DNA of 64,000 nt from an uncultured bacterium (GCA_964588285.1 CAZPNX010000001.1:143-64142), one strand, 5' to 3'; counted from the stretch's first letter, positions 8,662-49,965 are shown. Numbers and translations: made by a program. Notes: generated by a model not told the origin, from the sequence alone.

Positions 8662-8668
8662 AAAGCGT

Positions 8669-13208: not shown

Positions 13209-13209
13209 G

Positions 13210-32100: not shown

Positions 32101-34780
32101 GAACGAATGGAACAATCTGGTCTACGCCCGGGTCTGGATGGACGGGCTGTCGGCGCCGGGCGACATAGAATTGGCCATGGTCGAGGTCACCGGCAACCGC
32201 TGGCTTTCCCAGGGGGTGGCCACCGAGGACACGGCCAATCCGGTGGATCCGCAATCCGAACGTTTTGACATCAGCGTCAAGAACAACCGGGACGACGCCG
32301 ACTATTCCCAGAATCCGCCTTACACCCCGGACAAAGACGAACAGGGCCGGGTCAAATTCGAGCAGAGCCTGGTGTACAAGATCGCCTCCCTGGACTCGGG
32401 ACATACGGTCAGCGCCAGGAGGAGCCTAAGGGAGGGCGAGAACAACTACACCGGCTACCGTACCATGAGGCTCTACGTCCGCAACCACGGCCGGGCGGTG
32501 CGGGGCTCGTTCTTCGTCAGGCTGATAGCCAGCGACAGCAACAGCTACTATGAATACCGGGAGCCGTTGACCGGCTATTGGCGGGACGTGGGCATCGAGC
32601 TCGACCGTTTCAGCGATCTTAAAAAGCTGCCCCGGGATTCCGGCCAGATCTTTGTCCGACAGGGCAATTACAGCATGCGGGGCCGCCCCAACCTTACCCA
32701 GCTATCGCGCATCGCCCTGGGAGCCTATGTCGATGAAAACGTCGCCACCGGGGACAACGTCGAGGTTTGGTTCGACGACCTGCGGCTGGACGACGTTCGT
32801 CGCGACGGAGGCGCCGCCATGATCACCCGGCTGGACCTGGGCTTCGCCGATCTGCTAGATGTCAACCTGAGCTACAACGACCGGAGCAGCCATTTCTATC
32901 GGATCGATGAGAGGCCGCCGACTTCGGGCAGCCGCAGCCAGGCCTTTGGGGCCAGCGGCACCATCAGGCTTCATAAGTTTTTCCTGGAGAAGCTGGGGCT
33001 GACCCTGCCGCTAACCTACCGTTATGCCGCCAGCAACACCTATCCCGAATTCGGCCGGGACGATATCCGTTTGAACAAGGAGGAGAGCCGGGAGGAAGCG
33101 ACGCGCCGCCGGGAATTGGGCTTTGGGGCCGGCATCAGCAAAAGCCTGTCCAAGTATTGGCTGACCAACCTGACGGTGGACCGTCTGTCTCCCTCTGTCA
33201 GCTGGAGCCGGAACACCGGACGGGATCCCAATTCGGCCGACAGCAACACCACCCTCACCATGGCTTTGGGCTACCGTTGGTCCCCGGCGACTCGGAGGGA
33301 GCTCAAGGTATTCCGGGGTTGGAAACTTTCCTACCTGCCCTCCAACCTCTCTTGGGACTGGAATAGCTCACAAACCAGGATATGGCGCTGGGACAAGCTG
33401 GCCAATGTGGTGAGCACTGTCGGCAGCGGCCGGACCCGCACTGCCCAAGGCCAGTTCGGCTGGCAGCCGGTGGAGCAGCTGACCTACAGTTTTGGCACCC
33501 AGCGCAACCTGCTGCAGAAAAGGATGGCCGGCCATCTGGCCCAGAGGCTGGGGCTGGGTTCGGAGGTGGGCCGCAATCAGAGTATAGATTACCGCACCAA
33601 CGTCAAATGGCTGAAGGTGGTTCAACCCACCGTCTCCTACACCGTCCGGTACAACGAGAGCCACCAGATGTACGGAGGCCAGGCCGGCGCCGACTCGGTG
33701 GACGTTATGGCCACCACCAACTCCAACAGCTTTTCCTCATCGGCCGGATTGGGCCTGGGCAAATGGATGTCCTTCTTGACCGGGCTGCGAAACGAGAAGC
33801 ACGACACCTCGGCCGAAGCCGGCAGTCCCAGGTGGGCGGTGATCCAGTTGGAGAAGTTCTTCAAGAGATGGAACGGAGTCTCGCTGGAATTTTCCCAGAC
33901 CAAGTCCAGCCAGACTTCGGGACTGTTGAGCCGGCCCGGATTTCTCTATCAGATCGGATGGCAAAGGGATCCTTCAGGCATCGCCCGCTACCGGCAGGCC
34001 GGCTCGGATCAGAGCAGTTTGGGCAACAACTATTCGGCCACCACCCAGGCGTCTATGGGAAGGATAAGCCTGGACCTGGCCTGGAGGCTGGGCGATGAAT
34101 GGAGGTGGTCGGGAGGCGTCACCAGCAGCCGCCGAAGCTTGACCTGGCCGGACGTCAGGGCCACCATGGGGTCTCTGGAGAGGCTGGGTTTTTGGAGGAA
34201 GGCCATGTCCAGCTCCAGCCTGACCGCCAACTACAGCCTGACCGCCGACAGCAGCTGGCAGCAGGACCGCGGATTTTTAAGCAAGGGCCAAAGGCAGAGG
34301 ATAGGAGCCGCCTGGAACGGCCGCTGGAAGAACCAAATCAACTCAGACCTGTCGGCCGATTATTCGCTGGAGGAAACCCGCGAGCCCAACCAGAACTATC
34401 CCGACGGCATCTTCCACAAGGTGACCTCCAGCCGCAAGCTTTCCACTTCGCTCTCCTATGCTTTCAGCGCCCCCAAGGGACTGGTGCTGAATTTTGGCAA
34501 GCTGGGTAAGCGACGCTTTAGATTCACAAGCTCCTTGAGCATGTCGCTGCGGGCCGAGTACACCGAGCGCGAGGAGAAAAGCAACTCGGTCGCCTCCAGG
34601 GATCTGGTGCCGTCGCGGCGTAGCCAGGAACTTTCTGTAGCCCCCAGCGCCAGCTACAATTTCTCCCGCAGCATTACCGGAAACCTGGCTATGGAGTACG
34701 CCTTCAACAAAGACAGGATCTCCTCGGTCAACAATTGGCGCCGCTATAGCCTTAACGCCGCGGTGGATATCAAGTTCTGA
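29159..34780 (+). CDS. giant (1873 aa) secreted outer-membrane protein; predicted very large beta-barrel (SprA-like?)
   Basis: Sec signal peptide 'MPKSRLKIIKAAAGLLLLLLAGKLEAQG'. Long C-terminal region of alternating-polarity beta-strand patterns rich in W/Y/S/R/N. C-terminus 'LNAAVDIKF' matches the OMP beta-signal (terminal Phe). No secretin motif seen. Confidence 0.8.
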   Translation: MPKSRLKIIKAAAGLLLLLLAGKLEAQGFGAMDSLAGTVAGRDLQMPATTVQYDPDLDLWLEQELAQGIVFDLRYRTFDGQWQRRREESLESLTRASRYDFLSKPAEARTGEGLIPDISVPLPGLDKVLGAGAQVKINGNQKISVGGEQTVYPNSKSTSELERARSNFDLKIKQEQRINLEGVIGDRVHVLIDHDSQADIDKKSKVRLRYEGKEDEIIESLEAGDTEFSIQGSSLVGGLTTVHKGLFGIKGVARLGGLELSAIASKDEGQSQSESYTGQSQKDSFALRDYEFINYRFYRLPLAQGDSIMDLRVYVNDNTQTSQAINAWLLDHSWRDFGYDPSRVDTLYGSLTQIMLKENLTDYVLDDRRNGILYTRHSLDRSHIMAVAMKVYNPGYGVRYYPDSTAFYPGVFINPNLAVMKRSNPQPPDSINGYSWLYQERRFYDLRKPQIIQSSLKIRIYKDTGENVLLERDTLMPGRPTFIHRLGLDRDDNGEIDPDFLRLGDEGFFYFPYSEPFAMDSLLTDPNTVIYRKVDPEPSDSKYRVVITFLTSTAIFNLRAPGRIIEGSVKVYVGGQLLPESDYQMDYDTGLITFTAAASDRINRPDVQLKIDYQYYPIFALGSKTLAGVRGLYKFNESSQLGATWMYRSERTPEDKPRLGEEPRRIIVAGVDGSFTAKPELMTRLADALPGVETEAPSRMSFSGEAAANFPNPNTKGQVYIDDMDGAKLSDEFTLSRLNWARSSVPTGKQASQLARTFYWYNPRNRVTMGELNPNLTDPAERSQQLTTLKMHLVPDTAAGPADSSWAGITTVLSKTGLDLTERRLLNVWVRSIRSDQPTAGQGKLHIDIGKSIHEDQARRNAAGLLVGPNDSVNGEPLSAAGEQVTTDANDIGIDGFANGSPYDDGSDDFNRDDSTRMNGTEGNGYYDTEDLLLTGKPLGTPYGTPQNNYHTFSFDLSGGSGWQKLTIALDSARQVGNIARNEWNNLVYARVWMDGLSAPGDIELAMVEVTGNRWLSQGVATEDTANPVDPQSERFDISVKNNRDDADYSQNPPYTPDKDEQGRVKFEQSLVYKIASLDSGHTVSARRSLREGENNYTGYRTMRLYVRNHGRAVRGSFFVRLIASDSNSYYEYREPLTGYWRDVGIELDRFSDLKKLPRDSGQIFVRQGNYSMRGRPNLTQLSRIALGAYVDENVATGDNVEVWFDDLRLDDVRRDGGAAMITRLDLGFADLLDVNLSYNDRSSHFYRIDERPPTSGSRSQAFGASGTIRLHKFFLEKLGLTLPLTYRYAASNTYPEFGRDDIRLNKEESREEATRRRELGFGAGISKSLSKYWLTNLTVDRLSPSVSWSRNTGRDPNSADSNTTLTMALGYRWSPATRRELKVFRGWKLSYLPSNLSWDWNSSQTRIWRWDKLANVVSTVGSGRTRTAQGQFGWQPVEQLTYSFGTQRNLLQKRMAGHLAQRLGLGSEVGRNQSIDYRTNVKWLKVVQPTVSYTVRYNESHQMYGGQAGADSVDVMATTNSNSFSSSAGLGLGKWMSFLTGLRNEKHDTSAEAGSPRWAVIQLEKFFKRWNGVSLEFSQTKSSQTSGLLSRPGFLYQIGWQRDPSGIARYRQAGSDQSSLGNNYSATTQASMGRISLDLAWRLGDEWRWSGGVTSSRRSLTWPDVRATMGSLERLGFWRKAMSSSSLTANYSLTADSSWQQDRGFLSKGQRQRIGAAWNGRWKNQINSDLSADYSLEETREPNQNYPDGIFHKVTSSRKLSTSLSYAFSAPKGLVLNFGKLGKRRFRFTSSLSMSLRAEYTEREEKSNSVASRDLVPSRRSQELSVAPSASYNFSRSITGNLAMEYAFNKDRISSVNNWRRYSLNAAVDIKF

Positions 34781-34855: not shown

Positions 34856-35299
34856 ATGCTGGGATTAACCAAGGACGAAAAGCTGGTCATCGTTTTCCTC
34901 AGCATCAGCCTGGCGGCGGGGAGCTTGTTGTTGCTCTATAAAAGATTTCACCCCTCCTTCGCTACCGGACTACTCCGGTCGGACAAAGTTCTGCCGGCTC
35001 CGCTTACGGATACACTGTTTTCAGAGGCATCAGATTCCCTGCTTTCCCAGGAACCGGCCGCTGTCCGGACGGAAAAAATTGGTCCCGCCCGGGTTCCCTT
35101 GGCTCCGGTAAACATCAACACTGCCGGCCAAAAGACACTGGAAGCCCTGCCGCATATCGGCCCCTCAATGGCCAAGAGGATCATCGAGTACCGCAGCGCC
35201 TCGGGCGGATTTACCAACATCGAGCAACTGGGAAGGGTCAAAGGCATCGGCCCCAAGCGTCTGGAACAGCTCAGGCAGCATGTGACGGTTGACAGATGA
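34856..35299 (+). CDS. comEA: ComEA-family competence protein (membrane-anchored helix-hairpin-helix DNA-binding protein)
   Basis: N-terminal TM 'LVIVFLSISLAAGSLLLLY'; C-terminal tandem HhH 'ININTAGQKTLEALPHIGPSMAKRIIEYR...GFTNIEQLGRVKGIGPKRLEQL'. Confidence 0.8.
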   Translation: MLGLTKDEKLVIVFLSISLAAGSLLLLYKRFHPSFATGLLRSDKVLPAPLTDTLFSEASDSLLSQEPAAVRTEKIGPARVPLAPVNINTAGQKTLEALPHIGPSMAKRIIEYRSASGGFTNIEQLGRVKGIGPKRLEQLRQHVTVDR

Positions 35300-35355: not shown

Positions 35356-35384
35356 TTGACAAGCTCGGCTGGGTGTGATATAGT
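35356..35384 (+). promoter_or_regulatory. sigma-70 consensus promoter for the pilB operon
   Basis: TTGACA (35356-35361), 17-nt spacer, TGaTATAGT extended -10 (35376-35384), then SD 'AAGGGGAGGA' and ATG at 35408. Preceded by a GGCCGG...CCGGCC hairpin after comEA. Confidence 0.55.
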
Positions 35385-35407: not shown

Positions 35408-37102
35408 ATGGCGTTGAAACTCGGCGATTTCCTGGTTCAGAATAAGCTGATCACCAATGATCAGTTAAATGCCGCTTTGGCCGAGCAGAAGAACTCCGGC
35501 GAGCGACTGGGCTCCTGCCTGATCAAGCTGAAGTTCATCTCCGAGGAAAAGATCACCGAGGCTCTGGGCAAGCAGTTCAACCTGCCCACGATCAACCTCT
35601 CCAATATTGAGATCGATCCCCAGATACTGAAGCTGATACCGCACGAGATGGCTCACAAGTTCCAGATCGTCCCCATATCCAAGACCGGCCGCGTTCTGCA
35701 GCTGGCCATGTCCAACCCAGCCGACGTCTTTACCATCGACAACATCCAGTTTCTTACCGGACTGGAGGTAAAACCGGTGGTCTGCGCCGAGACCGCCATT
35801 GCCCGGGCGGTGGACAAGCTCTACGCCGCCTCAACCGGCCTGACCGAGGCCATGAAGGCGGTGCAGGAGGAGGAGGCCGCCGAGGTGGAGTTCGTGGAGA
35901 GGGAGGCCGAGCAGAACGTCACCCAGGCCGACATCGACGCCGCCCCGGTGGTCAAGCTGGTCAACAGCATGATCTTTGACGCCATCAAGCGGGGAGCCTC
36001 GGACATCCACATCGAGCCCTACGAGAAGGTGCTGCGGGTGCGCTTCCGCATCGACGGGGTTCTTCAGGAGACCATGTCGCCTCCAAAGCGCATTGCGGCC
36101 GCGGTAGCCTCGCGCATCAAGGTGCTCTCCAAGCTCAATCTGACCGAGCGCCGCCTGCCCCAGGACGGACGCTTCTCGGTCAAATCCGGCGACCAGAACG
36201 TCGACTTCCGCGTCTCCACCATGCCCATCAAGCACGGGGAGAAAATCTGCATCCGCATCCTGCGGCAGTCCGGCCTGTCCGGGGACCTTAACAAGCTGGG
36301 CCTTCAAGGCAAACCGCTGGAAGACCTTCTCAGTGCCATTGCCAAACCTCAGGGCATGGTGCTGATCACCGGACCCACCGGTTCGGGCAAGACCAACACC
36401 CTCTACTCCTGCATCAGCCGGCTGAACACGCCCAAGGTCAACATCAGCACCGCCGAGGATCCGGTGGAATACGACATCATGGGCATCAACCAGGTAAACG
36501 TTCAGACCGAGATCGGCTACACCTTCGCTAAGGCGCTCAAGGCCTTTCTGAGGCAGGATCCCAACATCATCCTGGTGGGCGAGATCCGGGACCGGGAGAC
36601 CGGCCAGATCGCCATGGAGGCGGCCATGACCGGCCACATGGTGCTTTCCACCCTGCACACCAACGACGCCCCCAGCACCCTGAACCGCCTGATCGAGATG
36701 GAGATCCCCACCTTCCTGATCGCGGCCACGGTCATCCTGATCGAGGCCCAGCGGCTGGTGCGCACCATCTGCCCCCACTGCAAGCAGCCTGACAAGCTGA
36801 GCCCGGACGACATCGCCAAGATGGGGGTGGACCCCCAGCTTTTGGCCGGAGCCACCCTCTACAAGGGGGCCGGCTGCATGGAATGCAACCGCACCGGCTA
36901 CAAGGGCCGGGTGGGCCTGTTCGAGATCCTGCCGGTGACCCCGGCCATCCGGGCGGCCATTTTGGCCAAGGCCACCTCGGACGAGATTAGAAAGATCGCG
37001 GTCAGGGAGGGGGTGAAGCTGTTGCGCGAAGACGGACTGGACAAGGTGCGGGCCGGGATCACCACCCTGGAGGCGGTCATCGCCAAGACGGTGGTCGACT
37101 GA
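35408..37102 (+). CDS. pilB: type IV pilus assembly ATPase PilB/GspE family (paralogue 1) with MshEN-type N-domain
   Basis: Walker A 'GPTGSGKT', Asp box, His box, tetracysteine 'CPHC...CMEC'. N-domain repeats 'KLGDFLVQNKLITNDQLNAALAEQ' and 'RLGSCLIKLKFISEEKITEALGKQ' match the 24-residue c-di-GMP-binding MshEN motif. Confidence 0.9.
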   Translation: MALKLGDFLVQNKLITNDQLNAALAEQKNSGERLGSCLIKLKFISEEKITEALGKQFNLPTINLSNIEIDPQILKLIPHEMAHKFQIVPISKTGRVLQLAMSNPADVFTIDNIQFLTGLEVKPVVCAETAIARAVDKLYAASTGLTEAMKAVQEEEAAEVEFVEREAEQNVTQADIDAAPVVKLVNSMIFDAIKRGASDIHIEPYEKVLRVRFRIDGVLQETMSPPKRIAAAVASRIKVLSKLNLTERRLPQDGRFSVKSGDQNVDFRVSTMPIKHGEKICIRILRQSGLSGDLNKLGLQGKPLEDLLSAIAKPQGMVLITGPTGSGKTNTLYSCISRLNTPKVNISTAEDPVEYDIMGINQVNVQTEIGYTFAKALKAFLRQDPNIILVGEIRDRETGQIAMEAAMTGHMVLSTLHTNDAPSTLNRLIEMEIPTFLIAATVILIEAQRLVRTICPHCKQPDKLSPDDIAKMGVDPQLLAGATLYKGAGCMECNRTGYKGRVGLFEILPVTPAIRAAILAKATSDEIRKIAVREGVKLLREDGLDKVRAGITTLEAVIAKTVVD

Positions 37103-37142
37103 ACTGGGTTGCTGAACTATAATAATATAGCAAAATAGGTAG

Positions 37143-38867
37143 ATGGCACTCAAGATAGGCGACATGCTGCTCAAGGCCGGTCTGATTTCCGGCGAGCAGC
37201 TGGACAAGGCCCTCAAGGAGCAGCAAAACACCAGCGGCCGGCTGGGATCCATCCTGGTGAAGCTGGGCTTCATCACCGAGGACGAGATCGTCCAGTTCCT
37301 CTCCAAACAGTTCAACGTGCCCTCGGTCAACCTGTCGGAGTACAAGATAGACGCCGCCACCATCAAGCTGATCCCTCCCCACATCGCCCAGAAGTACGGG
37401 GTCATCCCCCTGACTCGGCTGGGCCGGGTGATCACCGTGGCCATGGTCAATCCCAACGACGTTCTGGCCATGGACGACATCAAGTTCTCCACCGGCTTCG
37501 ACGTCCGGCCGGTGGTGGCCTCGGAGGGAGCCATCTGGTCGGCCATCGACAAGCAATACGGGTCGGCCGGAATGCTGGAGGACATGATGAAGTCATTGGA
37601 CGAGGCCATGGAGTCCGAGGACGAAGCGGGGCTGGAGGTGCTGGAGGAGGAGAAGGAGGACCAGAACGACGCCGCCTCGGAGATGGCGGCCGCCATCGAG
37701 AACAGCCCGGCCGCCAAGCTGGTCAACAAGCTGATAGCCGAGGCGGTGCAGCGCAGGGCCACCGACATCCACATCGAACCCTATGAGAAGGAGATGAGGG
37801 TGCGGATGTCGGTGGACGGGGTGCTCCACGAGATCATGAACCCACCGCTGAAGATGAAATCGTCGCTGGTGGCCCGCACCAAGATCATCTCCAAGCTCAA
37901 GGTGGAGGAAAAGCGCCTGCCCCAGGACGGCCGCATCCGGATGGTGCTTCAGGGCAAACCCATCGACATCCGGGTGTCCATCGTCCCCACCGCCTTCGGG
38001 GAGAAGGTGGCCATGCGCATCCTGGACCGGAGCAACGTCTCCTTCGACTTCAAGGACCTGGGGTTCGAGGAGGGTCCGCTGAAGCACCTGATCAAGGCCA
38101 TCACCACCCCCTTCGGCATCGTGCTGGTGACCGGCCCCACCGGCTGCGGCAAGACCACCACTCTCTACGCCTGTCTGGAGTACGTCAACAAGCCGGACAC
38201 CAACGTCATGACGGCCGAGGAGCCGGTGGAATACAGCTTGGTGGGAATCAACCAGGTCCCGGTCAAGGAGGAGGGGGGCACCACCTTCGCCGCCGCCCTC
38301 AAGGCCTTCCTGCGGCAGGACCCAAACATCATCATGGTGGGCGAGATCCGGGACAAGGAGACGGCCGAGATCGCCATCCGCTCCTCTCTCACCGGCCACC
38401 TGGTGATGTCCACCGTCCACACCAACAGCGCCGCCCTGACCATCACCCGTCTGGTGGACATGGGGGTCGAGCCTTTCATGATCGCCTCGTCCCTGCTGTG
38501 CGTCGAATCGCAGCGTCTGGTGCGGAGGATCTGCCCCTACTGCAAGGAAGAGCACCGGCCGGACGAGAAGCTGACGGCCGAGTTTTTAGGCAAGCACGTG
38601 GACATGCGCAGCATGAAGTTCTACCGGGGGAGGGGCTGCGCCGAGTGCCGCAACACCGGCTACAAGGGGCGGCTGGGGCTCTACGAGATCCTGCCCATCA
38701 CTCCGGCCATCAGGGACCTGATCCTGCAGAGCGCCACCACCGAAATCATCGAGAAAAAGGCGGTGGAGGAGGGCATGCCCACTCTGCGGCGCGACGGCAT
38801 CCTCAAGGTCTCCAAGGGTCTGACCACCATCGAGGAAGTCATCAAGGAAACCGTGGCCGAGGACTAG
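37143..38867 (+). CDS. pilB: PilB/GspE-family ATPase (paralogue 2) with MshEN-type N-domain
   Basis: '[10 protein letters not shown]', 'CPYC...CAEC'. N-domain '[24 protein letters not shown]' / '[24 protein letters not shown]'. Confidence 0.9.
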
Positions 38868-38921
38868 GATTTCGCGACCACTTGTCACCAAAAAATTGAT
38901 CATTCTTTGCAAGATTAGATA

Positions 38922-40694
38922 ATGGCGCAGAACCTGGCCGAGATGCTGATGAAGATGGGCCTTTTAACCAAGGCCCAGTACGATAAAGCGGTGCTGGAGC
39001 AGAAGACGGCGGCCGAGCCTCAGGCGGCCACCTTGGTGCGCCTGGGCATGGTCACCGAGAACGTCATGACCCAGTTTCTCTCCCGCCAGTTCAACGTACC
39101 CTCCATGGACCTGTCAAACTTTCAGGTGGAGCCGGCAGTGCTGAAGCTGGTCAAGGCCGACGTGGCCAACCGCTTCCTGGCGGTGCCCATCAAGCGGTTG
39201 GGCCGCAGCCTGACGGTGGCCATGGTCGATCCCTCGGATATCTTCGCCCTGGAGGATATCAAGTTTCTCACCGGGCTGGAGGTCAAGCCGGTGGCCGCCG
39301 GCTACAACGCCATCCGCAAACTCTTGGAGCAGCATTATCCTCTGGGAAAGGACCTGACGGTCATCTCGGAGACGGCCGGAAATCTTGCCCAGATCAAGGA
39401 TCAGGTTCTGGAGGAGCTGCCCGTATCCGAACTGGCCGAGGCCGGCTCCGGGGACATGGAGATGGAGTGGGTGGACGATGGGGAGGTCGAGGAGGACGTG
39501 GACATCTCCCAACTGCAGCAGGCCGGCCAGGCCACCCCGGTGGTCAAGATGGTAAACTACATCATGACCGAGGCGGTGCGGCGAGGGGCCTCGGACATCC
39601 ACATTGAGCCCTACGAGAAACTGTTCCGGGTGCGCCTGCGTCAGGACGGGGTGCTGCAGACCCTGATGGAGCCGCCCCTGAGGATGAAGGCTCCGTTGGT
39701 GGCCCGCATCAAGGTCATGTCCAAGCTCAACGTCACCGAGAGGCGCAAGCCCCAGGATGGCCGCATCGCCCTCAAGGTGCTGGGGAAGAAGATCGACCTG
39801 CGGGTTTCCACACTGCCGGTGCTGTTCGGCGAAAAGGTGGTGATGCGTATCTTGGACGCCAGCTCCCTGACGCTGGACCTGGCCAACTTTGGCTTTACAG
39901 AGCTGGCCCTGCGCAACTTCATGAAGGCCATCCACGCCCCCTACGGCATTCTGCTGATAACCGGCCCCACCGGCTCGGGCAAGACCACCACATTGTACTC
40001 GGCCCTGTCCCAGCTGAACACGCCCGACCGCCACATTCTGACGGTGGAGGACCCCATCGAGTACAACCTTAAGGGCATAAACCAGATCCAGGCCGAGCCC
40101 CAGATAGGCCTGACCTTTGGGGCGGCCCTGAGGGCCATGCTCCGGCAGGCGCCCAATATCATCATGCTGGGCGAGATCCGTGACGGGCCGACGGCCGAAA
40201 TCGCGGTCCGGGCGGCTCTCACCGGACACCTGGTTCTATCCACCCTGCACACCAACGACGCCCCGTCCTCGGTGTCGCGTCTGATAGACATGGGCATCGA
40301 GCCGTTCCTGGTGGCCTCCTCGTGCATTCTGATCCAGGCCCAGCGTTTGGTGCGCCGCATTTGCAAACAGTGTAAGGCCCCGGCCAATGTCAACCCCCAG
40401 CTTTTGTACGACATGGGATACAAACCCGAGGACATCAAGGATGTGGCCTTCTTCAAGGGCAAAGGCTGCTCGGTCTGCAACAATACCGGATACAAGGGCC
40501 GGGTGGGTCTGTACGAGGTGATGCCCATCACCCCGGAGATACGGGAGATGATACTTACCAAGCAGGCGGTGACCACCATTCGGGCCAAGGCGGTGGAGCA
40601 GGGCATGCTCACCCTGCGCATGGACGCCTGGGGCAAGGTCAAGCAGGGGATGACCACGGTGGAGGAGATGATCCGGGAAACGGCCGAAGGCTAA
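38922..40694 (+). CDS. pilB: PilB/GspE-family ATPase (paralogue 3); N-domain MshEN motifs degenerate
   Basis: 'GPTGSGKTTT', 'CKQC...CSVC'. N-domain 'NLAEMLMKMGLLTKAQYDKAVLEQ' (LG to LA) and 'AATLVRLGMVTENVMTQFLSRQ' (leading RLG lost). Confidence 0.9.
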   Translation: MAQNLAEMLMKMGLLTKAQYDKAVLEQKTAAEPQAATLVRLGMVTENVMTQFLSRQFNVPSMDLSNFQVEPAVLKLVKADVANRFLAVPIKRLGRSLTVAMVDPSDIFALEDIKFLTGLEVKPVAAGYNAIRKLLEQHYPLGKDLTVISETAGNLAQIKDQVLEELPVSELAEAGSGDMEMEWVDDGEVEEDVDISQLQQAGQATPVVKMVNYIMTEAVRRGASDIHIEPYEKLFRVRLRQDGVLQTLMEPPLRMKAPLVARIKVMSKLNVTERRKPQDGRIALKVLGKKIDLRVSTLPVLFGEKVVMRILDASSLTLDLANFGFTELALRNFMKAIHAPYGILLITGPTGSGKTTTLYSALSQLNTPDRHILTVEDPIEYNLKGINQIQAEPQIGLTFGAALRAMLRQAPNIIMLGEIRDGPTAEIAVRAALTGHLVLSTLHTNDAPSSVSRLIDMGIEPFLVASSCILIQAQRLVRRICKQCKAPANVNPQLLYDMGYKPEDIKDVAFFKGKGCSVCNNTGYKGRVGLYEVMPITPEIREMILTKQAVTTIRAKAVEQGMLTLRMDAWGKVKQGMTTVEEMIRETAEG

Positions 40695-40789
40695 CACTAA
40701 GAAACACAAAATACAAAATCCAAATCTCAAAAGATCAGCGCCAAAGCCGTACTTTGAATTTTGAATTTTGGATTTAGAGGAGTAAAGAG

Positions 40790-41863
40790 ATGATCACCCT
40801 GCAGCAGCTTCTGGAGGAACTGATCCAAAAGAAGGCCACCGACCTCCACCTGACGGCCGGGGTGCCCCCGGTTTTCCGCATCGACGGGGAGCTGGTCCAG
40901 TCCAACCACGAGATCATGACCCCGCAGATGACCGAGCAGCTGGCCTACAGCATTCTTACCGACCAGCGGAAAAAGCGCTTTGAAATGGAAAAGGAACTGG
41001 ACCTGTCCATAGGCATCACCGGCCTGTCGCGATTTAGGGGCAACGTCTTCCTGCAGCGGGGCGGGGTGGCCATGGCCCTGCGCACCATTCCCTGGGAGAT
41101 CCGCTCCTTCCAGGCCCTGGGTCTGCCTCCGGTGGCGGCCGAGCTGTCCGACAAGCCCAAGGGGCTGGTGCTGGTGACCGGGCCCACCGGTTCCGGCAAA
41201 TCCACCACCCTGGCCACCATGCTGGACAAGGTCAATTCCGAGCGCCGCTCCCACATTCTGACAGTGGAGGACCCCATCGAATATATGCACCACCACAAGA
41301 AGTGCATCGTCAACCAGCGGGAATTGGAGTCAGACACCAAGAGCTTCGGAAACGCCCTGAAGTACGCCCTGCGCCAGGATCCGGACGTGGTGCTGATAGG
41401 CGAAATGCGGGACCTGGAAACCATCGAGGCCGCTTTGCGCATCTCGGAGACCGGGCACCTGACCTTTGCCACCCTGCACACCAACTCGGCCATGGAGTCC
41501 ATCCACCGCATCATCGACGTCTTCCCGCCGCACCAGCAGTCACAGGTGCGGGCCCAGCTGGCCTTTGTGCTGGAGGGGGTGATGACCCAGCAGCTGGTGC
41601 CTATGACCCGCGGGGGCCGCTGTCTGGCGTTGGAGATCATGATCTGCACCCCGGCCATCAAAGCCCTGATCCGCGACGACAAGGTTCACCAAATCTACTC
41701 CCTGATGCAGGCCGGCCAGAAGTACGGCATGCAGACCATGAACCAATCACTGTTCCAGCTGTTTATGGACAAGAAGATTTCTTTAGACACGGCCCTGGAT
41801 TACTCTCCGGCTGTGGAAGAGCTGGATCAGATGATCAAGCGGAGAACGGCAAACGCGGTGTGA
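40790..41863 (+). CDS. pilT: twitching motility retraction ATPase PilT
   Basis: Lacks the GspE N-domain. 'ATDLHLTAGVPPVFRIDGEL', Walker A 'GPTGSGKSTT', 'AIKALIRDDKVHQIYSLMQAGQKYGMQTMNQSL' PilT C-terminal motif. Confidence 0.9.
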   Translation: MITLQQLLEELIQKKATDLHLTAGVPPVFRIDGELVQSNHEIMTPQMTEQLAYSILTDQRKKRFEMEKELDLSIGITGLSRFRGNVFLQRGGVAMALRTIPWEIRSFQALGLPPVAAELSDKPKGLVLVTGPTGSGKSTTLATMLDKVNSERRSHILTVEDPIEYMHHHKKCIVNQRELESDTKSFGNALKYALRQDPDVVLIGEMRDLETIEAALRISETGHLTFATLHTNSAMESIHRIIDVFPPHQQSQVRAQLAFVLEGVMTQQLVPMTRGGRCLALEIMICTPAIKALIRDDKVHQIYSLMQAGQKYGMQTMNQSLFQLFMDKKISLDTALDYSPAVEELDQMIKRRTANAV

Positions 41864-42227: not shown

Positions 42228-43442
42228 ATGCCAGTCTACGTATGGAAGGGGCGGGACTCCAAGTCCGGCATTGCTACCGGCGAGATGACGGCCGAAAACG
42301 AGGCGGCAGTCATCGAGGCCCTGCGCAAACGGAACGTCATCGTCTCCTCGGTCAGGCCCAAGCCCAAAGAGCTGAAGATGCCGGGCTTCATGGCCAGCAA
42401 GGTCTCCAGCCGGGACCTGTCCATCTTTACCCGCCAGTTTGCCACCATGATCAACGCCGGCCTGCCCCTGGTGCAGTGCCTGGAGATCCAGGCCGCCCAG
42501 CAGGAGAGCCCGGTGTTCAAGAAGGTTATCGAACAGGTGAAAACCGACGTCGAGGGCGGCTCCACCTTGGCCGAGGCCCTTAAGCGGCAGAAGCAGGTCT
42601 TCTCCGAGCTATACATCAACATGGCCGCGGCCGGAGAGGCCGGCGGTATTTTGGACAACATCCTTCTCCGCCTGGCGGTCTACTTGGAGAAGGCCGAGGC
42701 CCTGGCCCGGAAGATCAAAGGGGCCATGATCTACCCGGTGATCATGATCTGCGTGGCCATCGGCGCGGCCGCGGTGCTCTTGATATTCGTCATCCCCATC
42801 TTCGAGAAAATGTTCGGCGAGATGGGGGCCAAGCTGCCGGGCCCAACCCTGTTTGTCATCGGGCTTTCCAAATTTCTTCAAAAATATATAATTCTGATAA
42901 TTGCCGTCATTGCCGGAGCCATCTTCGCCATTCGCAACTGGTACAAAACAGACAAGGGCCAGTTATTTTTAGACCAGTTGATGCTGAAGATTCCCATTCT
43001 GGGAGACCTGCAGCAGAAATCTTCCATCGCCCGGTTCGCCCGGACCCTGGGGACGCTCTTGGCCTCGGGCGTGGCCATTTTGGACGCTCTGGAGATCACG
43101 GCCAAGACGGCCGGCAACCGGGTGGTCCAGGACGCCATTTTGTCGGCCCGCAAGTCAATCGGCGGCGGCGAGACCATCTCGGCGCCTTTAAAGACCATGA
43201 AGATCTTCCCGCCGATGGTGGTCCAGATGATCTCGGTGGGCGAGGCCACCGGCGGCCTGGACGAGATGCTCAACAAGATCGCCGATTTCTACGACGAGGA
43301 GGTGGACACCGCGGTGGAGAACCTGACCGCGGCCATGGAGCCCATGATCATGGTGGTTTTGGGCTTGGGCATTGGCGGCCTGGTGATCTCCATGTATCTG
43401 CCCATCTTCACCATGACCTCGGCCCTGATGGGCGGTAAATGA
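42228..43442 (+). CDS. pilC: type IV pilus platform protein PilC (GspF family)
   Basis: Duplicated GspF domains, 3 TM helices, 'MPVYVWKGRDSKSGIATGEMTAENEAAVIEALRKRNV' N-terminus. Confidence 0.9.
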   Translation: MPVYVWKGRDSKSGIATGEMTAENEAAVIEALRKRNVIVSSVRPKPKELKMPGFMASKVSSRDLSIFTRQFATMINAGLPLVQCLEIQAAQQESPVFKKVIEQVKTDVEGGSTLAEALKRQKQVFSELYINMAAAGEAGGILDNILLRLAVYLEKAEALARKIKGAMIYPVIMICVAIGAAAVLLIFVIPIFEKMFGEMGAKLPGPTLFVIGLSKFLQKYIILIIAVIAGAIFAIRNWYKTDKGQLFLDQLMLKIPILGDLQQKSSIARFARTLGTLLASGVAILDALEITAKTAGNRVVQDAILSARKSIGGGETISAPLKTMKIFPPMVVQMISVGEATGGLDEMLNKIADFYDEEVDTAVENLTAAMEPMIMVVLGLGIGGLVISMYLPIFTMTSALMGGK

Positions 43443-43687: not shown

Positions 43688-45904
43688 ATGAACCTTAAAA
43701 CCCCGTTTGCCGGCAATATTTCCTGGCTGGTTCGGTTGGGGCTTATGGTCCTGCTCCTGACCAGCGCGGCCGCCCTGGGCCGAATGGGCGTTCTTTCGAT
43801 CCGGCTGGGATGGGCTTTGTTGTTCAGCGCCGTATATCTGGCGGCCACCGCCGGACTGGCCGTCTGGAGGCGTCCGGATCTGAGGGCTGCAGCCGATTAC
43901 GCTCACATTTTGCTGGATATTTTATGGATTTTCGCCTTCATCCGGGCCGTGGGCGGGGCAGAAAGCCCGTTCTCACTGCTCTTCTTCCTGACCATCATCC
44001 AGGCGGCCAACGTCCGTTTTTTACGGGGGGCCATCGGGTCGGCGGCGCTCTCCAGCTTGGCCTTTGCCCTTTTGCTAGTCATGGAGTATAAATCCTGGGC
44101 CGCCGTTCAGCAGGGGGCGGGGTCGGCCGAGCTGATGGCCGCCTTCAGGGCCGACTTCCTTTTCCGGGGATATGTCTACGCCATCTGCTTCTTTGTGGTG
44201 GCCGCGCTTTCCGGCATCCTGGCCGAGAGGCTACGCCTTAAGGGCCGCCAGCTGGAGGCGGCCGCCCGCGGCTGGGAGGAGTTCCGTCTCTCCACCGGAG
44301 ACATCCTCAAGAAAATGGGCTCCGGCCTGCTGACGGTCAACGCCAACGGCCAGGTACGCTATTGCAACCGGACCGGGGCCGAAATTTTGGGCCTAGCAGA
44401 AGACAATATCGAGGGTTTGCAGATCAGCGAGGCCTTTAAGGGGAGGAACAACGCCTTTGGTTCGATTCTGGAATCAACCCTGCGGGCCGATCTGGAGCCG
44501 CCGGATGATGAAAGCCAGAGTGCCCAGGCCTCCAAGCGCCGATTGACCGATGTCCGTCGGGAACTGATTCTGCAGCGGGAGGATGGGTCGGAAATACCAA
44601 TCGGCATAAGCACCACCACGGTGCGGGACGCCGAGGGCAGGGTGCAGGGTCTGATCGCCATTTTCCAAAACCTGACAGAGGCCAAGCGCATTGAGGGCCG
44701 CCTGCAACAGATGGAGAAACTGGAGGCCCAGAACGAGCACACCCATATATTGTTGACCATGGTCCAGCCGATGCTGGCCGGCATCGAGCAGGACATCGGC
44801 CGGGCGACCGAGCGCTTTTCCGGGGCCGAGCTTGAAGAGTTGTCCCGGGACATCGGGGCCAAGGTGGAATCGGTGCGCCGGGTGATTGAGGACTTCATGC
44901 GCTATGCCCGGATCGAGATCCCCCAGGAACGCCGTGAGGACGGGGGGAATCCGCCGTCCGAAGAGAAGGCGGTCATCGGACGTTCCCGTATTTTTCTAAA
45001 AACCATGGAGCTGGTGGGACAGGTGGCGGCCTCTGACAGCACGGTGCTGCTCCAGGGCGAGTCCGGCACCGGCAAGGAGCTGCTGGCCCGGGAGATCCAC
45101 CGGTTAAGCAAGCGGCGCCACGGGCCTTTCGTCACCATCAACTGCGCCGCCCTGCCCGAGGGTCTTTTGGAGTCCGAGCTTTTTGGGCATGTCCGGGGCT
45201 CGTTCACCGGGGCGGTGCGGGACAAGGACGGTCTGTTTAGGGCAGCCGACGGGGGCACCTTCTTTTTGGACGAGGTTTCCGAGACTTCGCCGGCCATCCA
45301 GGTCAAGCTTTTAAGGGTGCTGCAAGAGAGGGAGATCGTTCCGGTCGGCGGTTCCAAGCCCATCAAGGTGGATGTCAGGTTGATTTCGGCCACCAATGCC
45401 GTTTTGGCAGACTTGGTGGAAAAGGGCCGGTTCCGCAGCGACCTGTTCTACCGGCTTAATGTAATCCCCATAAGCATTCCGCCCCTAAGGGAGCGGGAGG
45501 ATGACATCCTGCTGTTGGCCGAGCACTTTATCGCCAAATACTGCCAAAAGACGGGAAAGCCAATGATGGGGTTTTCCGAGCGGGCCGAGAAGGCCTTAAA
45601 ATCGTATAGATGGCCTGGGAACGTCAGGGAGCTGGAGAACGCCATGGAAAGGGCGGTGGTGGTTTCAGATTCGGTCAAAATAGAATTGGAGGACCTGCCC
45701 AAGAACGTTCAGGAGGCTGGGAAGTCACAGAAACAAATCCCTGAAATCAGGGCCGGCGAAGGGACCCTGCGCGAAAAGGAGATGGAGTCCATTGTCCGCG
45801 CTCTTAGGGAGGAGAAAGGCAACAAGAAGCTGGCGGCCAAAAGGTTGGGGATACATTACGCCACGCTGTATCGGAAGATCAAGCAGTATGGGCTGGAAGG
45901 CTAA
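43688..45904 (+). CDS. sigma-54-dependent transcriptional activator with N-terminal integral-membrane sensor and PAS domain (no receiver domain)
   Basis: ~190-aa N-terminus with 5-6 TM helices, then a PAS-like region ('[22 protein letters not shown]'). AAA+ sigma54 domain '[18 protein letters not shown]', 'GSFTGA', 'GGTFFLDEV'. C-terminal Fis-type HTH '[23 protein letters not shown]'. Confidence 0.85.
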
Positions 45905-45993: not shown

Positions 45994-46025
45994 ATTGCAA
46001 AATGCGAAAAGTTGCATTTTGCAAT
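45994..46025. promoter_or_regulatory. perfect 12-bp inverted repeat (candidate enhancer/UAS) upstream of the pilin sigma-54 promoter
   Basis: ATTGCAAAATGC-gaaaagtt-GCATTTTGCAAT, ~115 bp upstream of the -24 element. Confidence 0.45.
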
Positions 46026-46138
46026 ATAAAAGAACAGTAAGAAAATTAAGAAAACATTGCTGGAAATATCTGTGATTTATAAACTCTTTATATTCAAAGA
46101 CTAACAAAATCATAAAAATTATAAAAAACTGTTGACTT

Positions 46139-46154
46139 TGGCACTTCGATTGCA
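46139..46154 (+). promoter_or_regulatory. sigma-54 (-24/-12) promoter of the major pilin gene
   Basis: TGGCAC-ttcga-TTGCA exactly matches the TGGCAC-N5-TTGC(A/T) consensus, 67 nt upstream of the pilin ATG and directly downstream of the sigma-54 activator gene. Confidence 0.75.
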
Positions 46155-46220: not shown

Positions 46221-46763
46221 ATGAACAACAAAGGCTTCACCCTCATCGAGCTGATGATCGTGGTGGTCATCATCGGCATCTTGGCAGCCATCGCCATCCC
46301 CAACTTCATCTCCATGCAAAACCGGGCTAAGGAAGCCAGCGTCAAGTCTAACATGCATACAATCCAGTTGGCGGCCGAGGACTTTAGCACCATTACCGAG
46401 GGAACATATCCTTCGGACTGCGCTACAACCATAGGGCAAGTAAGAACAGTCATTTTCGGCGCTGGCGATCCATTGGCAGCCGATCCTCGCTCGCTTTGTG
46501 GCGCAGCTGCCGGCTTAACTCCTGCCGCTGCCAACAGCATGGTCCCATCCAACATGAGAAATCCGATAGTGGGCGCCAATAACGCGTTCCAGTCGGTAGG
46601 TATCAATGCGGTGCACGCTCCCGGCACTTCGGGGACAGTCGGTTTCGAATCCTTTGACAACGCGGCAGCTACACCAGCTGCGATCGGAGCTGCCGTGCGG
46701 TACGAGATTGATGGTGACGGTGTCACCGCAGTCATAGCGACTGTATTGACCTCTGGTCAGTAA
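46221..46763 (+). CDS. pilA: type IVa major pilin (PilA-like)
   Basis: Prepilin leader 'MNNKG' then 'FTLIELMIVVVIIGILAAIAIPNF' (class III signal, Glu+5). SD AGGAGG. Ala/Pro/Ser/Thr-rich C-terminal half. Confidence 0.9.
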   Translation: MNNKGFTLIELMIVVVIIGILAAIAIPNFISMQNRAKEASVKSNMHTIQLAAEDFSTITEGTYPSDCATTIGQVRTVIFGAGDPLAADPRSLCGAAAGLTPAAANSMVPSNMRNPIVGANNAFQSVGINAVHAPGTSGTVGFESFDNAAATPAAIGAAVRYEIDGDGVTAVIATVLTSGQ

Positions 46764-46901: not shown

Positions 46902-47276
46902 TTGGATAAAAGATTATTAGCTTCTCTAGCTGTGATCGGACTCATGTCCTGCGCCTCCGACACGCCCGAGGCCGGGGTCAAACGCTACTGGCAGGCGGTG
47001 GCCGAGGGCAATGCCGACAAAATGCTGCGCACCCAGATTTACTATCGACCGGGGATGACCTCGGAATATCTGATGACGATAAAGGACATCGAATGGCTGT
47101 ATCTGGACAGCTGTTCCACGGTCTACCAGAGCCCGGCCCGAGCCATCGTCTACTACCAGGTGGTTTTTAAAAAAAGAGGACGGGCAAAGTCAACAAGATA
47201 TGCGACCGGCACCATGGTTATTCTACGCAACAGAAAGTGGCTGGTTGGGCGGCCGGTGGGTGCGATTCGCCGATGA
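46902..47276 (+). CDS. small predicted lipoprotein, unknown function
   Basis: TTG start; signal peptide with lipobox 'LMSC'. Sits between the two pilin genes. Confidence 0.5.
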   Translation: MDKRLLASLAVIGLMSCASDTPEAGVKRYWQAVAEGNADKMLRTQIYYRPGMTSEYLMTIKDIEWLYLDSCSTVYQSPARAIVYYQVVFKKRGRAKSTRYATGTMVILRNRKWLVGRPVGAIRR

Positions 47277-47360: not shown

Positions 47361-48359
47361 ATGAAGCACGGGAACAGAAGAAAAAGCATTCTGCTCAATA
47401 AGCGGATGCAGCTTAGCCTGGTATTCAGGATACTTGGAATTTCTTTGATCAGCATCCTGCTGATTGGCGGTTGCATATATCTGACCATCTGGATCCACGT
47501 AACATCTTCGGCCTTTGCTTCCGGAAAGATGTCGATGATCCAGATTTTCGACCGAGTCCATATGTTGCTGGCAGCGGTCCTTCCGGCGGCAGTCCTCTTA
47601 GTATTGTGGATGGGATTGCACATTTCCCATTCGATACTGGGGCCGCTGGTGAGGCTGGAAAACGAGTTCAAATCCATCAGACAGAATGGCTGGCATGGCC
47701 AGCCATTGAAGTTCAGGAAAAACGACGGCTTCGCCGAGCTAGCGATGGAGTTCAACGCCATGATGGATAGTCTGCAGCCTCAGGGAAAACCCTCCATTGG
47801 CCCTACAACTCCTGCTACTGAGCCTGGGAAAGAAAAATTCAAGTACGCCGGAGGCTTCACCCTCATCGAGTTGATGATCGTAGTCGTCATTATCGGCATA
47901 TTAGCGGCTATCGCGGTCCCCAACTACATCTCTATGCGTTTGCGGGCGCTTGAGGCCTCCTTAAAAGCGAATATGCATACCCTACAATGCGTTGTCGAGG
48001 AGTTCAACACCATGGCCGACGGCACATACCCGGGCGGTCTTGATGTCAGAGTGTCTGCCGTCATTCCAGCAGGGATAAATTCGTCCATTGCCGAAGGCGT
48101 CAGGATACCACCATTCCCCGCCAATGCGCTTATAAGCCCCCATGCAGGATATGCTAACCCGTTCAACCGCGCGTCAAATGCACTAGATGACTTAGCGGCT
48201 GGACCACCAGCGGTTGCACCCAGCGGTAACGTTTATTATACAGCCTATAATCAATTAGGTAATGTGACAAACGGCGTAGAAAACGCCGCATCAAGATATG
48301 TAATAACAGCTTATGGCAATAATGCACCGCTAAGCTTAGTGTTGAGATCCGGGCAATAG
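47361..48359 (+). CDS. 2TM-HAMP module fused in frame to a type IV pilin domain (or pilin with an extraordinarily long leader)
   Basis: Residues 1-135: two TM helices plus HAMP-like 'ILGPLVRLENEFKSIRQNG...NDGFAELAMEFNAMMDSL'. Then a Pro/Thr-rich linker, then 'KFKYAGG|FTLIELMIVVVIIGILAAIAVPNY' at residue 166 (F codon at 47856). No stop codon between the two parts. Confidence 0.7.
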   Translation: MKHGNRRKSILLNKRMQLSLVFRILGISLISILLIGGCIYLTIWIHVTSSAFASGKMSMIQIFDRVHMLLAAVLPAAVLLVLWMGLHISHSILGPLVRLENEFKSIRQNGWHGQPLKFRKNDGFAELAMEFNAMMDSLQPQGKPSIGPTTPATEPGKEKFKYAGGFTLIELMIVVVIIGILAAIAVPNYISMRLRALEASLKANMHTLQCVVEEFNTMADGTYPGGLDVRVSAVIPAGINSSIAEGVRIPPFPANALISPHAGYANPFNRASNALDDLAAGPPAVAPSGNVYYTAYNQLGNVTNGVENAASRYVITAYGNNAPLSLVLRSGQ

Positions 48360-49359: not shown

Positions 49360-49965
49360 ACCTTACCCTCTGTTCCCTCCCCCGCAGGGAGAGGGACGGC
49401 CCCTTCCCCTGCGGGGAAGGGGCCGGGGTTAGGTCAAAGGGCTGGCTGGTCGTTGAGTGCCGCCTTGTCCCGATAAAACCTACGGCCACTTGACATGCGG
49501 CGGGTGTACTTGTGCCGAGCCGGGTCGAGGCTTCGAGACGGCCGGCGGCCCCCTCTCCGGGATCGGAGAGGGCAGGGTGAGGGCATGTCCCGCTTGGTGC
49601 GCCATGCCCGAAGCTTGAGACAGGGTTCCACTGATGCCGAAAGGTTATTGTGGAGGCATTTAAGGGATAGAAGACTGGCGGGTTTCAAATTCAGAAGGCA
49701 GTCCCCTATAGGTAGATATATAGTAGATTTCGTCTGCTTCGAAGCCAAGGTGATATTGGAATTGGATGGAAGCCAGCATGCCGAGGAAGCTCAGGCCGAG
49801 AGGGATTGTGTCAGGGACGAGTGGCTGGGAAGCCAGGGGTTCGAGGTGCTTAGGTTTTGGAACACGGAAGTGATAAAGAACGTAAGTGGTGTGCTGATGA
49901 AGATAAGGGAGGCGTGCCAGCGCACCCTCACCTAAGTCCTCTCCCATCAAGGGAGAGGTGTCGAG
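49360..49965. mobile_element. DUF559 (Vsr-like endonuclease) mini-element with flanking CCCTCTCC/GGAGAGGG hairpins, inserted between the ABC ATPase and permease genes
   Basis: Hairpins at 49398-49424 (GGCCCCTTCCCC-tgc-GGGGAAGGGGCC), 49551-49572 (CCCTCTCCG-ggat-CGGAGAGGG) and 49938-49958 (CCTCTCCC-atcaa-GGGAGAGG). Inverted GGGTGAGGG (49575-49583) / CCCTCACC (49924-49931) bracket the ORF. Confidence 0.65.
49585..49935 (+). CDS. DUF559 domain protein (very-short-patch-repair endonuclease-like fold)
   Basis: 'ERLLWRHLRDRRLAGFKFRRQSPIGRYIVDFVCFEAKVILELDGSQH...DEWLGSQGFEVLRFWNTEV' is the characteristic DUF559 sequence. Start chosen at internal Met 'MSRLV'. Confidence 0.75.
   Translation: MSRLVRHARSLRQGSTDAERLLWRHLRDRRLAGFKFRRQSPIGRYIVDFVCFEAKVILELDGSQHAEEAQAERDCVRDEWLGSQGFEVLRFWNTEVIKNVSGVLMKIREACQRTLT

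Follow-up and report, generated by a model that had tools for sequence, protein, structure and literature searches.

Three tandem pilB genes with unequally retained cyclic di-GMP motifs in a type IVa pilus operon of Candidatus Edwardsbacteria

Pilus extension is generally credited to one PilB homohexamer, and to our knowledge PilB and TfpB of Acinetobacter baylyi are the sole studied exception. Multiple PilB homologues are known from Vibrio cholerae (MshE and PilB), from Clostridium and Synechocystis (PilB1 and PilB2) and from archaea (PilB1 to PilB3, and PilB-PilC pairs). The two A. baylyi ATPases both extend one type IVa pilus, with distinct roles and regulation, and CpiA inhibits PilB, not TfpB (PMC8213720). 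The purpose of multiple PilB homologues was called an open question in a 2024 review (PMC11656802), and a one-line remark in the 2011 genome paper on Ramlibacter tataouinensis notes 'three PilB paralogs' beside a single pilus machinery (PMC3164672). Here, we analyzed a 64-kb stretch of DNA from an uncultured bacterium (GCA_964588285.1 CAZPNX010000001.1:143-64142; hereafter the window), in which three full-length pilB genes lie head to tail ahead of pilT. Their products, B1, B2 and B3 in operon order, all carry the N-terminal module that in other PilB-family proteins binds cyclic di-GMP (c-di-GMP); the module is complete in B1 and B2 and degenerate in B3. The best explanation of the locus as a whole, to which we give an even chance, is that the three proteins are alternative motors on one platform, of which c-di-GMP gates two but not the third.

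Three PilB paralogues and their c-di-GMP modules

The three genes are located on the + strand at 35408..37102 (pilB1, 564 amino acids), 37143..38867 (pilB2, 574 amino acids) and 38922..40694 (pilB3, the pilT-proximal copy, 590 amino acids); an earlier model-made reading of this DNA (the original prediction) had given the span 35408-40694, the three lengths and the head-to-tail order exactly. Each protein matches PF05157 MshEN (70.6-78 bits) and PF00437 T2SSE (~450 bits). TIGR02538 PilB (cutoff 675.65) is the top NCBIfam model for all three, with B1 (692.7 bits) and B3 (681.5 bits) above the cutoff; B2 (668.5 bits) lies 7 bits below it, yet PilB is still its top model. The curated cutoffs of the GspE model TIGR02533 (630.25; B1 567.3, B2 582.8 and B3 575.7, each under the protein's own PilB score) and the TfpB model NF053534 (850; B1 466.4, B2 443.0 and B3 464.8) rule out either identity for any copy. 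The nearest solved structures are the PilB proteins of Geobacter and Myxococcus, matched over the full length with E-values of 1e-167 to 1e-178. Walker A, Asp box, Walker B core (GEIRD), His box, R-x-PQDGR and tetracysteine (zinc-binding) motifs are present in all three proteins. Walker A of B2 reads GPTGCGKT; the catalytic motifs of B3 are intact (QAPNIIMLGEIRD), as had been claimed for this paralogue, with A replacing D ahead of the Walker B strand (QAPNII). The genomic context also fits PilB, with pilT, pilC, a PilS-like sigma-54 activator and two pilin genes directly 3' and a sigma-54 promoter 5' of pilA1. On these features, B1, B2 and B3 are predicted to be hexameric ATPases driving pilus extension. 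We hold the gene anatomy of the locus, as described here, with high confidence.

Pairwise identity among the paralogues is 47-50% for the proteins and ~65-67% for the alignable parts of the DNA. Since they are only 47-50% identical, the copies are old paralogues; this divergence, together with the retention of the array in many independent assemblies, rules out the recent duplication or assembly artefact that the original prediction had named among its refuting conditions. All three copies are under purifying selection, with ratios of nonsynonymous to synonymous substitution rates (dN/dS) of 0.13-0.21 against L001 and 0.13-0.19 against L094 (L-numbers denote the loci of relatives); per copy, the ratio was 0.13-0.19 for B1 and 0.13-0.17 for B3. 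Residues 1-58 of B3 gave 0.06-0.10, below the rest of B3, and are thus strongly constrained and not decaying.

In each motif of an MshEN domain, position 1 provides stacking on guanine, the base is bound by backbone amides of the glycine at position 3 and of the residue after it, leucines 2, 17 and 21 build hydrophobic clusters, and the final glutamine contacts ribose and phosphate (PMC5013675). A single mutation of a conserved hydrophobic residue was enough to lower the affinity of MshEN by a factor of more than 10, and comparable changes account for the loss of binding in XpsE (PMC5013675). M. xanthus (Myxococcus xanthus) PilB is a c-di-GMP binder (PMC11656802). We scored the 53-residue c-di-GMP module with the NCBIfam profile NF053729 (cutoff 38 bits), and, using M. 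xanthus PilB (3jc8) as the register, counted how many of 22 key and 12 ligand-contact positions each sequence retains; M. xanthus PilB itself has 19/22 and 11/12, respectively.

The profile aligned to residues 4-56 of all three window proteins, dispelling the doubt whether the motifs would align to a profile at all. In B1, the module (35417..35575, + strand; 71.9 bits) consists of KLG...Q, a 5-residue spacer and RLG...Q; in B2 (37152..37310, + strand; 74.6 bits), it consists of KIG...Q, the spacer and RLG...Q. B1 retains 19 and B2 21 of the 22 key positions, and each retains 11 of the 12 contacts. The claim that paralogues 1 and 2 keep both MshEN repeats was therefore upheld, with the amendment that motif I begins with K in both proteins, not R. 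B1 additionally has K at turn-glycine position 10 of both motifs. We also tried the relaxed expression for the motif given by Wang et al. (2016), a regular expression that recognised the two motifs of B2 and nothing in B1 or B3. It was set aside in favour of the profile and the position count, as we judged it too strict for B1 because the sole failure there is at the turn position (K versus G/A/S), where M. xanthus PilB has N.

The module of B3 (38931..39089, + strand) reads NLA...Q, spacer, PQA...Q, scores 32.0 bits, i.e., under the cutoff, and retains 12/22 key and 4/12 contact positions. Its motif I is NLAEMLMKMGLLTKAQYDKAVLEQ and its motif II PQAATLVRLGMVTENVMTQFLSRQ. Relative to M. xanthus PilB, N-L-A stands for R-L-G in motif I and P-Q-A for R-[LI]-G in motif II, so that both motifs have A for G at position 3 and motif II has Q for L at position 2; Y, V or M occupy leucine positions. 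These changes agree with the degeneracy first described for paralogue 3, i.e., LG changed to LA in repeat 1 and the leading RLG of repeat 2 lost. B3 still has the two-motif spacing, the hydrophobic core and, in each motif, the turn glycine and the terminal glutamine. The N-domain also keeps its fold family (5htl match, E-value 8.7e-15), and the B3 sequence is much nearer to the motif-bearing PilBs of Geobacter and Myxococcus than to Xanthomonas PilB.

Defined as two 24-residue motifs with a 5-residue spacer and a score above 38 bits, the MshEN receptor module is thus found in B1 and B2, not in B3. We did not class B3 as a c-di-GMP-binding MshEN because of its score, its NLA and PQA triplets and its contact count. 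Binding of c-di-GMP by B1 and B2 is predicted, and we infer that B3 does not bind it directly or does so far more weakly. The argument on B3 is based on the sum of the changes and the sub-cutoff score, not on the missing arginines alone. In Thermus PilF, the GSPII-B domain has K and L at position 1 and yet binds c-di-GMP at 6 nM, and GSPII-C is a binder although its motif II begins with P; GSPII-A, with only 45% identity at the key positions of its second motif, is a non-binder (PMC11731258).

Triplets, doublets and site erosion in relatives

The source of the window is a member of Candidatus Edwardsbacteria (UBP2), and the pilB genes belong to a type IVa pilus operon. The top genome matches were bacterium UBP2_UBA4780 (91%) and metagenome-assembled genomes (MAGs) of Candidatus Edwardsbacteria (65-73%), and ~34 protein clusters of B3 orthologues were found at identities of at least 65%, several of them labelled Edwardsbacteria. 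A metagenome contig scan yielded one close locus, L094; the protein database and contig look-ups gave more. The order B1-B2-B3-pilT-pilC was present in every relative with enough flanking DNA, being kept in L001, L002, L003, L094 (a metagenome contig), L161/L162 and 17 similar places. The survey of related genomes recommended with the original prediction thus returned the triplet in all Edwardsbacteria relatives examined and also in the more distant L163, whose copies are 54-57% identical to those of the window, correspond to them one-to-one in order and are separated by spacers of 5 and 15 nucleotides (nt).

Individual loci show departures from this layout. The B1 orthologue of L002, an Edwardsbacteria MAG, is frameshifted near residues 334-358, around Walker A (2447-4041), with B2 and B3 intact; either a sequencing error or true loss of the gene in that lineage (a pseudogene) could explain this. 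The deep-branching Edwardsbacteria MAG locus L003 has enlarged spacers within its pilB-pilT array, of 201, 91 and 481 nt (5996-6196, 7910-8000 and 9774-10254), packed with short direct repeats, e.g., CACAGATGAGCACAGATTAAGA units and GATATTTGATATT units.

Doublets of pilB ahead of pilT-pilC occur in WOR-3 (L024, L028 and L036) and TA06 (L165 and L166), and tandem or pilT-interrupted doublets in Omnitrophota, Lentisphaerota, Planctomycetota, Nitrospirota, Deferribacterota and Hydrogenedentota. The statement that typical systems have one PilB is therefore broadly right, as exemplified by the single pilB of Gemmatimonadota, Krumholzibacteriota and Eisenbacteria, but tandem doublets account for ~25 of the 160 related loci fetched. 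Each of the clusters examined contains one pilC and one pilT beside its two or three pilB genes. There are two pilins in the triplet lineages and two also in the doublet WOR-3 loci, and the notion of one motor per pilin consequently fits poorly. In the Omnitrophota locus L040 (245-850) and the taxonomically unassigned locus L152 (5566-6120), an open reading frame (ORF) of 185-202 amino acids with similarity to PilB (34-37% identity) precedes the doublet and could be a fragment or a stand-alone domain.

We used neighbour-joining trees (distance-based; 100 bootstraps, 560 columns) to compare the paralogue types. All pilT-proximal copies, i.e., Edwardsbacteria B3, L163 gene 3, TA06 gene 2 and the WOR-3 second genes, formed a clade with 94% bootstrap. 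B1 grouped with L163 gene 1 (100%) and B2 with L163 gene 2 (62%; 69% with TA06 gene 1 added), and monophyly of the three window paralogues received 3%. The B2 type is shared with the first copy of the TA06 and WOR-3 doublets and B3 is orthologous to their second copy, while the B1 type is confined to the triplet-bearing lineages, i.e., the Edwardsbacteria loci and L163. Because the pilT-proximal copies cluster together, the duplication that separated the B2 and B3 types is older than the split of these candidate phyla, and the question of recent versus ancient duplication is answered in favour of ancient paralogy. A tree of the N-domain alone (150 columns) was uninformative, most inter-group bootstraps being <20%.

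The two sides of this duplication differ in how the c-di-GMP site has fared. All 16 B1/B2-type sequences, from four lineages, have a complete site with 10-12 of the 12 contact positions kept, and the 15 of this type that were scored with the profile gave 71.3-79.1 bits. In contrast, the 11 B3-type sequences keep 3-11 of 12 contacts and score 25.2-72.6 bits: WOR-3 L036 25.2, WOR-3 L028 26.0, the window 32.0, L001 35.3, L163 38.8, L161 40.9, L094 44.3, L002 49.1, L003 62.1, TA06 66.4 and WOR-3 L024 72.6. B3 of the window is among the most eroded. In each of the 14 B3-orthologue clusters read, neither motif has R/K at position 1 and motif II has no G at position 3. The lesions themselves differ: Edwardsbacteria copies carry substitutions, L163 has a deletion within motif II, motif I of TA06 is truncated N-terminally, and in two WOR-3 genomes the change is wholesale. 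This pattern looks like repeated independent erosion of the B3-type site after constraint was relaxed on one paralogue, with the other type remaining fixed. The proposal of different second-messenger control, made originally for the three window genes, has thereby gained comparative support from 16 complete B1/B2-type and 11 variably eroded B3-type sites, but binding and its loss are predictions.

Genes around the pilB array

A ComEA-like helix-hairpin-helix protein of 147 amino acids is encoded upstream of pilB1 (34856..35299, + strand), matching PF12836 HHH_3 at 79.1 bits and the TIGR00426 ComEA HHH region at 52.9 bits against a cutoff of 53.1. It is likewise found upstream of the pilB array in L001, L003, L161/L162 and TA06 L165/L166. 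It is preceded by a gene for a SprA-like protein of 1873 amino acids (29159-34780, + strand; PF14349 SprA_N, a type IX secretion translocon family), and the SprA-like and ComEA-like pair lies directly 5' of the array in Edwardsbacteria (L161, L162) and TA06 (L165), a case of cross-phylum synteny.

A sigma-70-type promoter-like site (35356..35384, + strand; TTGACA-17-TATAGT with a TG extension, 11/12), a consensus match only, lies 5' of pilB1. The ORFs of the array do not overlap and are separated by 40 nt (B1-B2) and 54 nt (B2-B3); a sequence scan of these spacers found no terminator-like sites between the pilB genes. Promoter-like matches in both spacers were considered as a sign of separate regulation and given no weight, because spacer sequence and length vary among relatives, down to the 5 and 15 nt of L163. 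The 95-nt spacer between pilB3 and pilT (40695-40789) contains an AT-rich inverted repeat, AAAATCCAAA ... TTTGGATTT, with TCAAAAG/CTTTGA inside, which could form an RNA hairpin uncoupling pilT from pilB expression; the corresponding spacer of L161 is comparable, at 99 nt.

The sole retraction ATPase gene of the cluster, pilT (40790..41863, + strand; 357 amino acids), scores 487.5 bits on TIGR01420 (cutoff 319.1), and the product of the sole platform gene, pilC (42228..43442, + strand; 404 amino acids), has two PF00482 T2SSF domains (216 bits) and PilC (Myxococcus type) as its best NCBIfam model (499 bits, under its cutoff of 700). These are followed by a 738-amino-acid one-component regulator (43688..45904, + strand) that combines a PilS-like six-transmembrane region (PF25323 6TM_PilS, 33.4 bits), a PAS domain (PF13426 PAS_9), a sigma-54 AAA+ activator domain (PF00158, 229 bits) and a helix-turn-helix (PF02954); a domain scan detected neither HisKA nor a receiver domain in it. 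In TA06 L165, by comparison, PilS and PilR are separate. A sigma-54 promoter, TGGCACTTCGATTGC (46139..46153, + strand), lies 67 nt 5' of the pilA1 start codon and is the sole zero-mismatch TGGCAC-N5-TTGC match across the window. An AT-rich stretch with palindromic TGCAAAATGC/GCATTTTGCA elements (~45994-46030) is also located 5' of pilA1.

PilA1 (46221..46763, + strand; 180 amino acids) is a type IV pilin with the leader MNNKG/FTLIELM (PF07963 N_methyl, 37.6 bits). The second pilin (47361..48359, + strand; 332 amino acids; N_methyl 31.3 bits at residues 163-185) is an in-frame fusion to an N-terminal membrane/HAMP-like extension of ~160 amino acids, with a HAMP match of 22.9 bits under a cutoff of 25. 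Its type IV pilin part is complete (G/FTLIELMIVVVIIG at residues 163-185), and there is no start codon close to the cleavage site. The same architecture is kept in Edwardsbacteria L094 (14442-15530), L161 (14504-15586) and L162 (14525-15607), where the products are 360-363 amino acids long and carry N_methyl; the extensions of the fused pilins are ~160-190 amino acids long with membrane-like segments. The protein could be a giant-leader pilin, or a sensor-pilin fusion freed by prepilin peptidase. Between the two pilin genes is a 124-amino-acid ORF (46902-47276, + strand) that carries a lipoprotein-like signal (...LMSC...) and matches no family.

Two further regions of the window stand apart from the pilus genes. 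A DUF559 endonuclease-like ORF (49495-49935, + strand; PF04480, 147.8 bits) sits between genes for an ABC transporter ATPase (48413-49357) and permease (49993-50760), and looks like a small insertion. The block at ~4000-16800, with a GC content of 0.48-0.51 versus ~0.58-0.62 elsewhere, is a polysaccharide cluster that may have been gained by horizontal transfer; its products are glycosyltransferases, sugar transferases, two Wzy/O-antigen-ligase-like proteins and an asparagine synthase homologue.

Readings of the locus and comparison with known systems

In the mechanism that we propose, the three PilBs would form separate homohexamers that dock in turn on one PilC/PilM platform, as PilB and PilT do. 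B1 and B2 would be gated or stabilised by c-di-GMP, like V. cholerae MshE and M. xanthus PilB, and B3 would extend the pilus independently of direct c-di-GMP binding. B3 may be controlled through its conserved degenerate bundle, given that Xanthomonas PilB binds PilZ with a motif-less ND0 domain. The cell would thereby gain c-di-GMP-dependent and c-di-GMP-independent modes of extension, e.g., one for surface attachment or twitching and another for DNA uptake together with the adjacent ComEA. That DNA uptake is one of the outputs is hinted at by the conserved ComEA-like neighbour. In Thermus, abolishing c-di-GMP binding by GSPII-B lowers twitching and adhesion, not transformation (PMC11731258). 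Of the separate parts of this proposal, unequal c-di-GMP responsiveness of the three motors is likely; the operation of alternative homohexameric motors on one machine is plausible while falling somewhat short of probable. The presence of one pilT and one pilC per cluster, the short spacers and the lack of terminators were counted in favour of the proposal.

Several observations weigh against the proposal. Extension ATPases are usually machine-specific (PMC11656802). In the window, pilMNOPQ are absent, and further pilC or platform sets may exist elsewhere. No genes for diguanylate cyclases or phosphodiesterases (GGDEF, EAL or HD-GYP) were found among the window ORFs scanned; use of c-di-GMP by the organism is therefore presumptive. 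The lost position-1 arginines of B3 are not decisive, since Thermus PilF domains bind without them, and the high conservation of the N-terminal bundle of B3 indicates that it has some role, possibly with another ligand or a PilZ-like adaptor. Finally, the clade of all upstream copies reached only 60% in the neighbour-joining tree, leaving the branching order of the B1, B2 and B3 types weakly supported.

The specificity of extension ATPases, as between MshE and PilB of V. cholerae (PMC11656802), leads to a different reading, in which each PilB drives its own filament or machine (an adhesive pilus, a competence pseudopilus or a secretion pilus like that of a type II secretion system) and the other platforms are encoded elsewhere. 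The two different pilins, one of odd architecture, and the ComEA-like gene in the cluster would suit such a division, and with pilMNOPQ outside the window other sets are possible. We nevertheless consider it unlikely, if still a serious contender, because a single pilC and a single pilT stand beside two or three pilB genes in every cluster examined, all three proteins score best as PilB and not as GspE or TfpB, and the number of pilins (two) does not follow that of pilB (two or three). Where machines are duplicated, as in the archaeal PilB-PilC pairs, ATPase and platform moreover usually co-duplicate (PMC6491452). A heterohexameric motor was among the original suggestions; it could take the form, e.g., of (B1-B2-B3)x2, with c-di-GMP sensors on some subunits only. 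The tight operon with its short spacers favours co-expression, PilB hexamers are C2-symmetric with three conformational pairs (PMC8389850), and the 2024 review leaves PilB-TfpB hetero-oligomers possible, citing two-hybrid contacts between ATPases (PMC11656802). However, the solved PilB rings are all homohexamers (the matches in the Protein Data Bank are single-species assemblies), the paralogues show no one-sided loss of the catalytic or arginine motifs, as is often seen in obligate hetero-oligomers, and relatives use two paralogues and most phyla one, which argues against an ancestral fixed 2:2:2 stoichiometry. A mixed ring is hence improbable, and the specific (B1-B2-B3)x2 form, with the subunit types mapped on the three conformational pairs and sensors on four of six subunits, is a shade less probable again.

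It is also conceivable that B3 still binds c-di-GMP through a variant site, so that three affinities would produce a graded response and no on/off split. Thermus PilF domains bind without a position-1 arginine, one of them with a motif II proline as in B3, over a range of 6 nM to ~400 nM (PMC11731258); B3 keeps its spacing, terminal glutamines, turn glycines and hydrophobic core, its module segment is strongly constrained (dN/dS 0.06-0.10), and the deeper-branching B3-type copies of L003, TA06 and WOR-3 L024 score well above the cutoff (62.1, 66.4 and 72.6). Against this, B3 of the window is altered at 8 of 12 contacts, including G to A at position 3 twice and L to Q in motif II, its profile score is 32.0 against 38, and single changes of conserved hydrophobic residues cost more than 10-fold in affinity (PMC5013675); we regard a graded response as rather unlikely. 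The view that the extra copies lack a distinct function, being redundant, decaying or the product of faulty assembly or binning, would find some encouragement in the frameshift of the L002 B1 orthologue near residues 334-358 and in the position of B2 just under the PilB equivalog cutoff. The identities of 47-50%, dN/dS of 0.13-0.21, the intact motifs and the retention of the array in many independent assemblies and in lineages diverged to 54-57% identity make this extremely improbable.

What is at stake differs between these readings. Were separate machines true, the finding would be ordinary gene clustering; were the (B1-B2-B3)x2 ring true, type IV filaments would have their first heteromeric motor. 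The locus and its orthologues in Edwardsbacteria, L163, WOR-3 and TA06 offer a stable natural series of one, two and three motors on an apparently single platform, with a built-in contrast in which the c-di-GMP site is always kept upstream and repeatedly eroded in the pilT-proximal copy. As the ATPases are soluble and heterologously expressible, swapping or mixing of motors, c-di-GMP-dependent motor choice and the role of the bundle would be testable despite the uncultured hosts. We found no literature on a conserved tandem pilB triplet, the orthologous doublets of WOR-3 and TA06 or asymmetric MshEN retention in a search that most subscription journals lay outside; for tandem or triple bacterial pilB, it turned up no more than archaeal PilB1 to PilB3, PilB1/PilB2 of Clostridium and Synechocystis, A. 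baylyi TfpB and the Ramlibacter remark.

The WOR-3 and TA06 doublets are orthologous to B2 and B3 and have the same asymmetry of motif retention, without the B1 type. Among characterized proteins, V. cholerae MshE, M. xanthus PilB and Clostridium perfringens PilB2 have the same N-terminal module of 24+5+24 residues as B1 and B2 (PMC5013675; PMC11656802), and the number of contact positions kept by B1 and B2 equals that of M. xanthus PilB. They differ in that motif I of B1 and B2 is K-led, B1 lacks the turn glycines and binding is predicted here; furthermore, each of these three proteins is the sole motor of its own pilus. Thermus thermophilus PilF has three MshEN-like modules, of which two bind c-di-GMP, in one pilus/DNA-uptake system, with apparent specialisation for twitching and adhesion versus transformation (PMC11731258). 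There, however, the three modules are fused to one ATPase, whereas each module of the window has its own full ATPase and the motors are triplicated. For B3, the likeness is to the PilB of Xanthomonas and Pseudomonas, which keeps a four-helix N-terminal subdomain without c-di-GMP motifs and is regulated by PilZ-FimX (PMC8389850); a degenerate module can therefore persist for protein-protein regulation. In contrast to those systems, the window showed no homologue of either PilZ or FimX, and B3 is much closer to Geobacter and Myxococcus PilB.

The closest experimental precedent is A. baylyi PilB and TfpB. In both cases there is more than one PilB-family motor for, in A. baylyi and possibly here, one DNA-uptake pilus, and the motors are old, non-redundant paralogues with unequal regulation. 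The present locus differs in having three motors, arranged in tandem in the pilT-pilC operon and none of them orthologous to TfpB, whose action on one pilus we infer. The regulatory contrast is also of another kind, being a predicted cis-encoded c-di-GMP site here and a protein inhibitor in A. baylyi.

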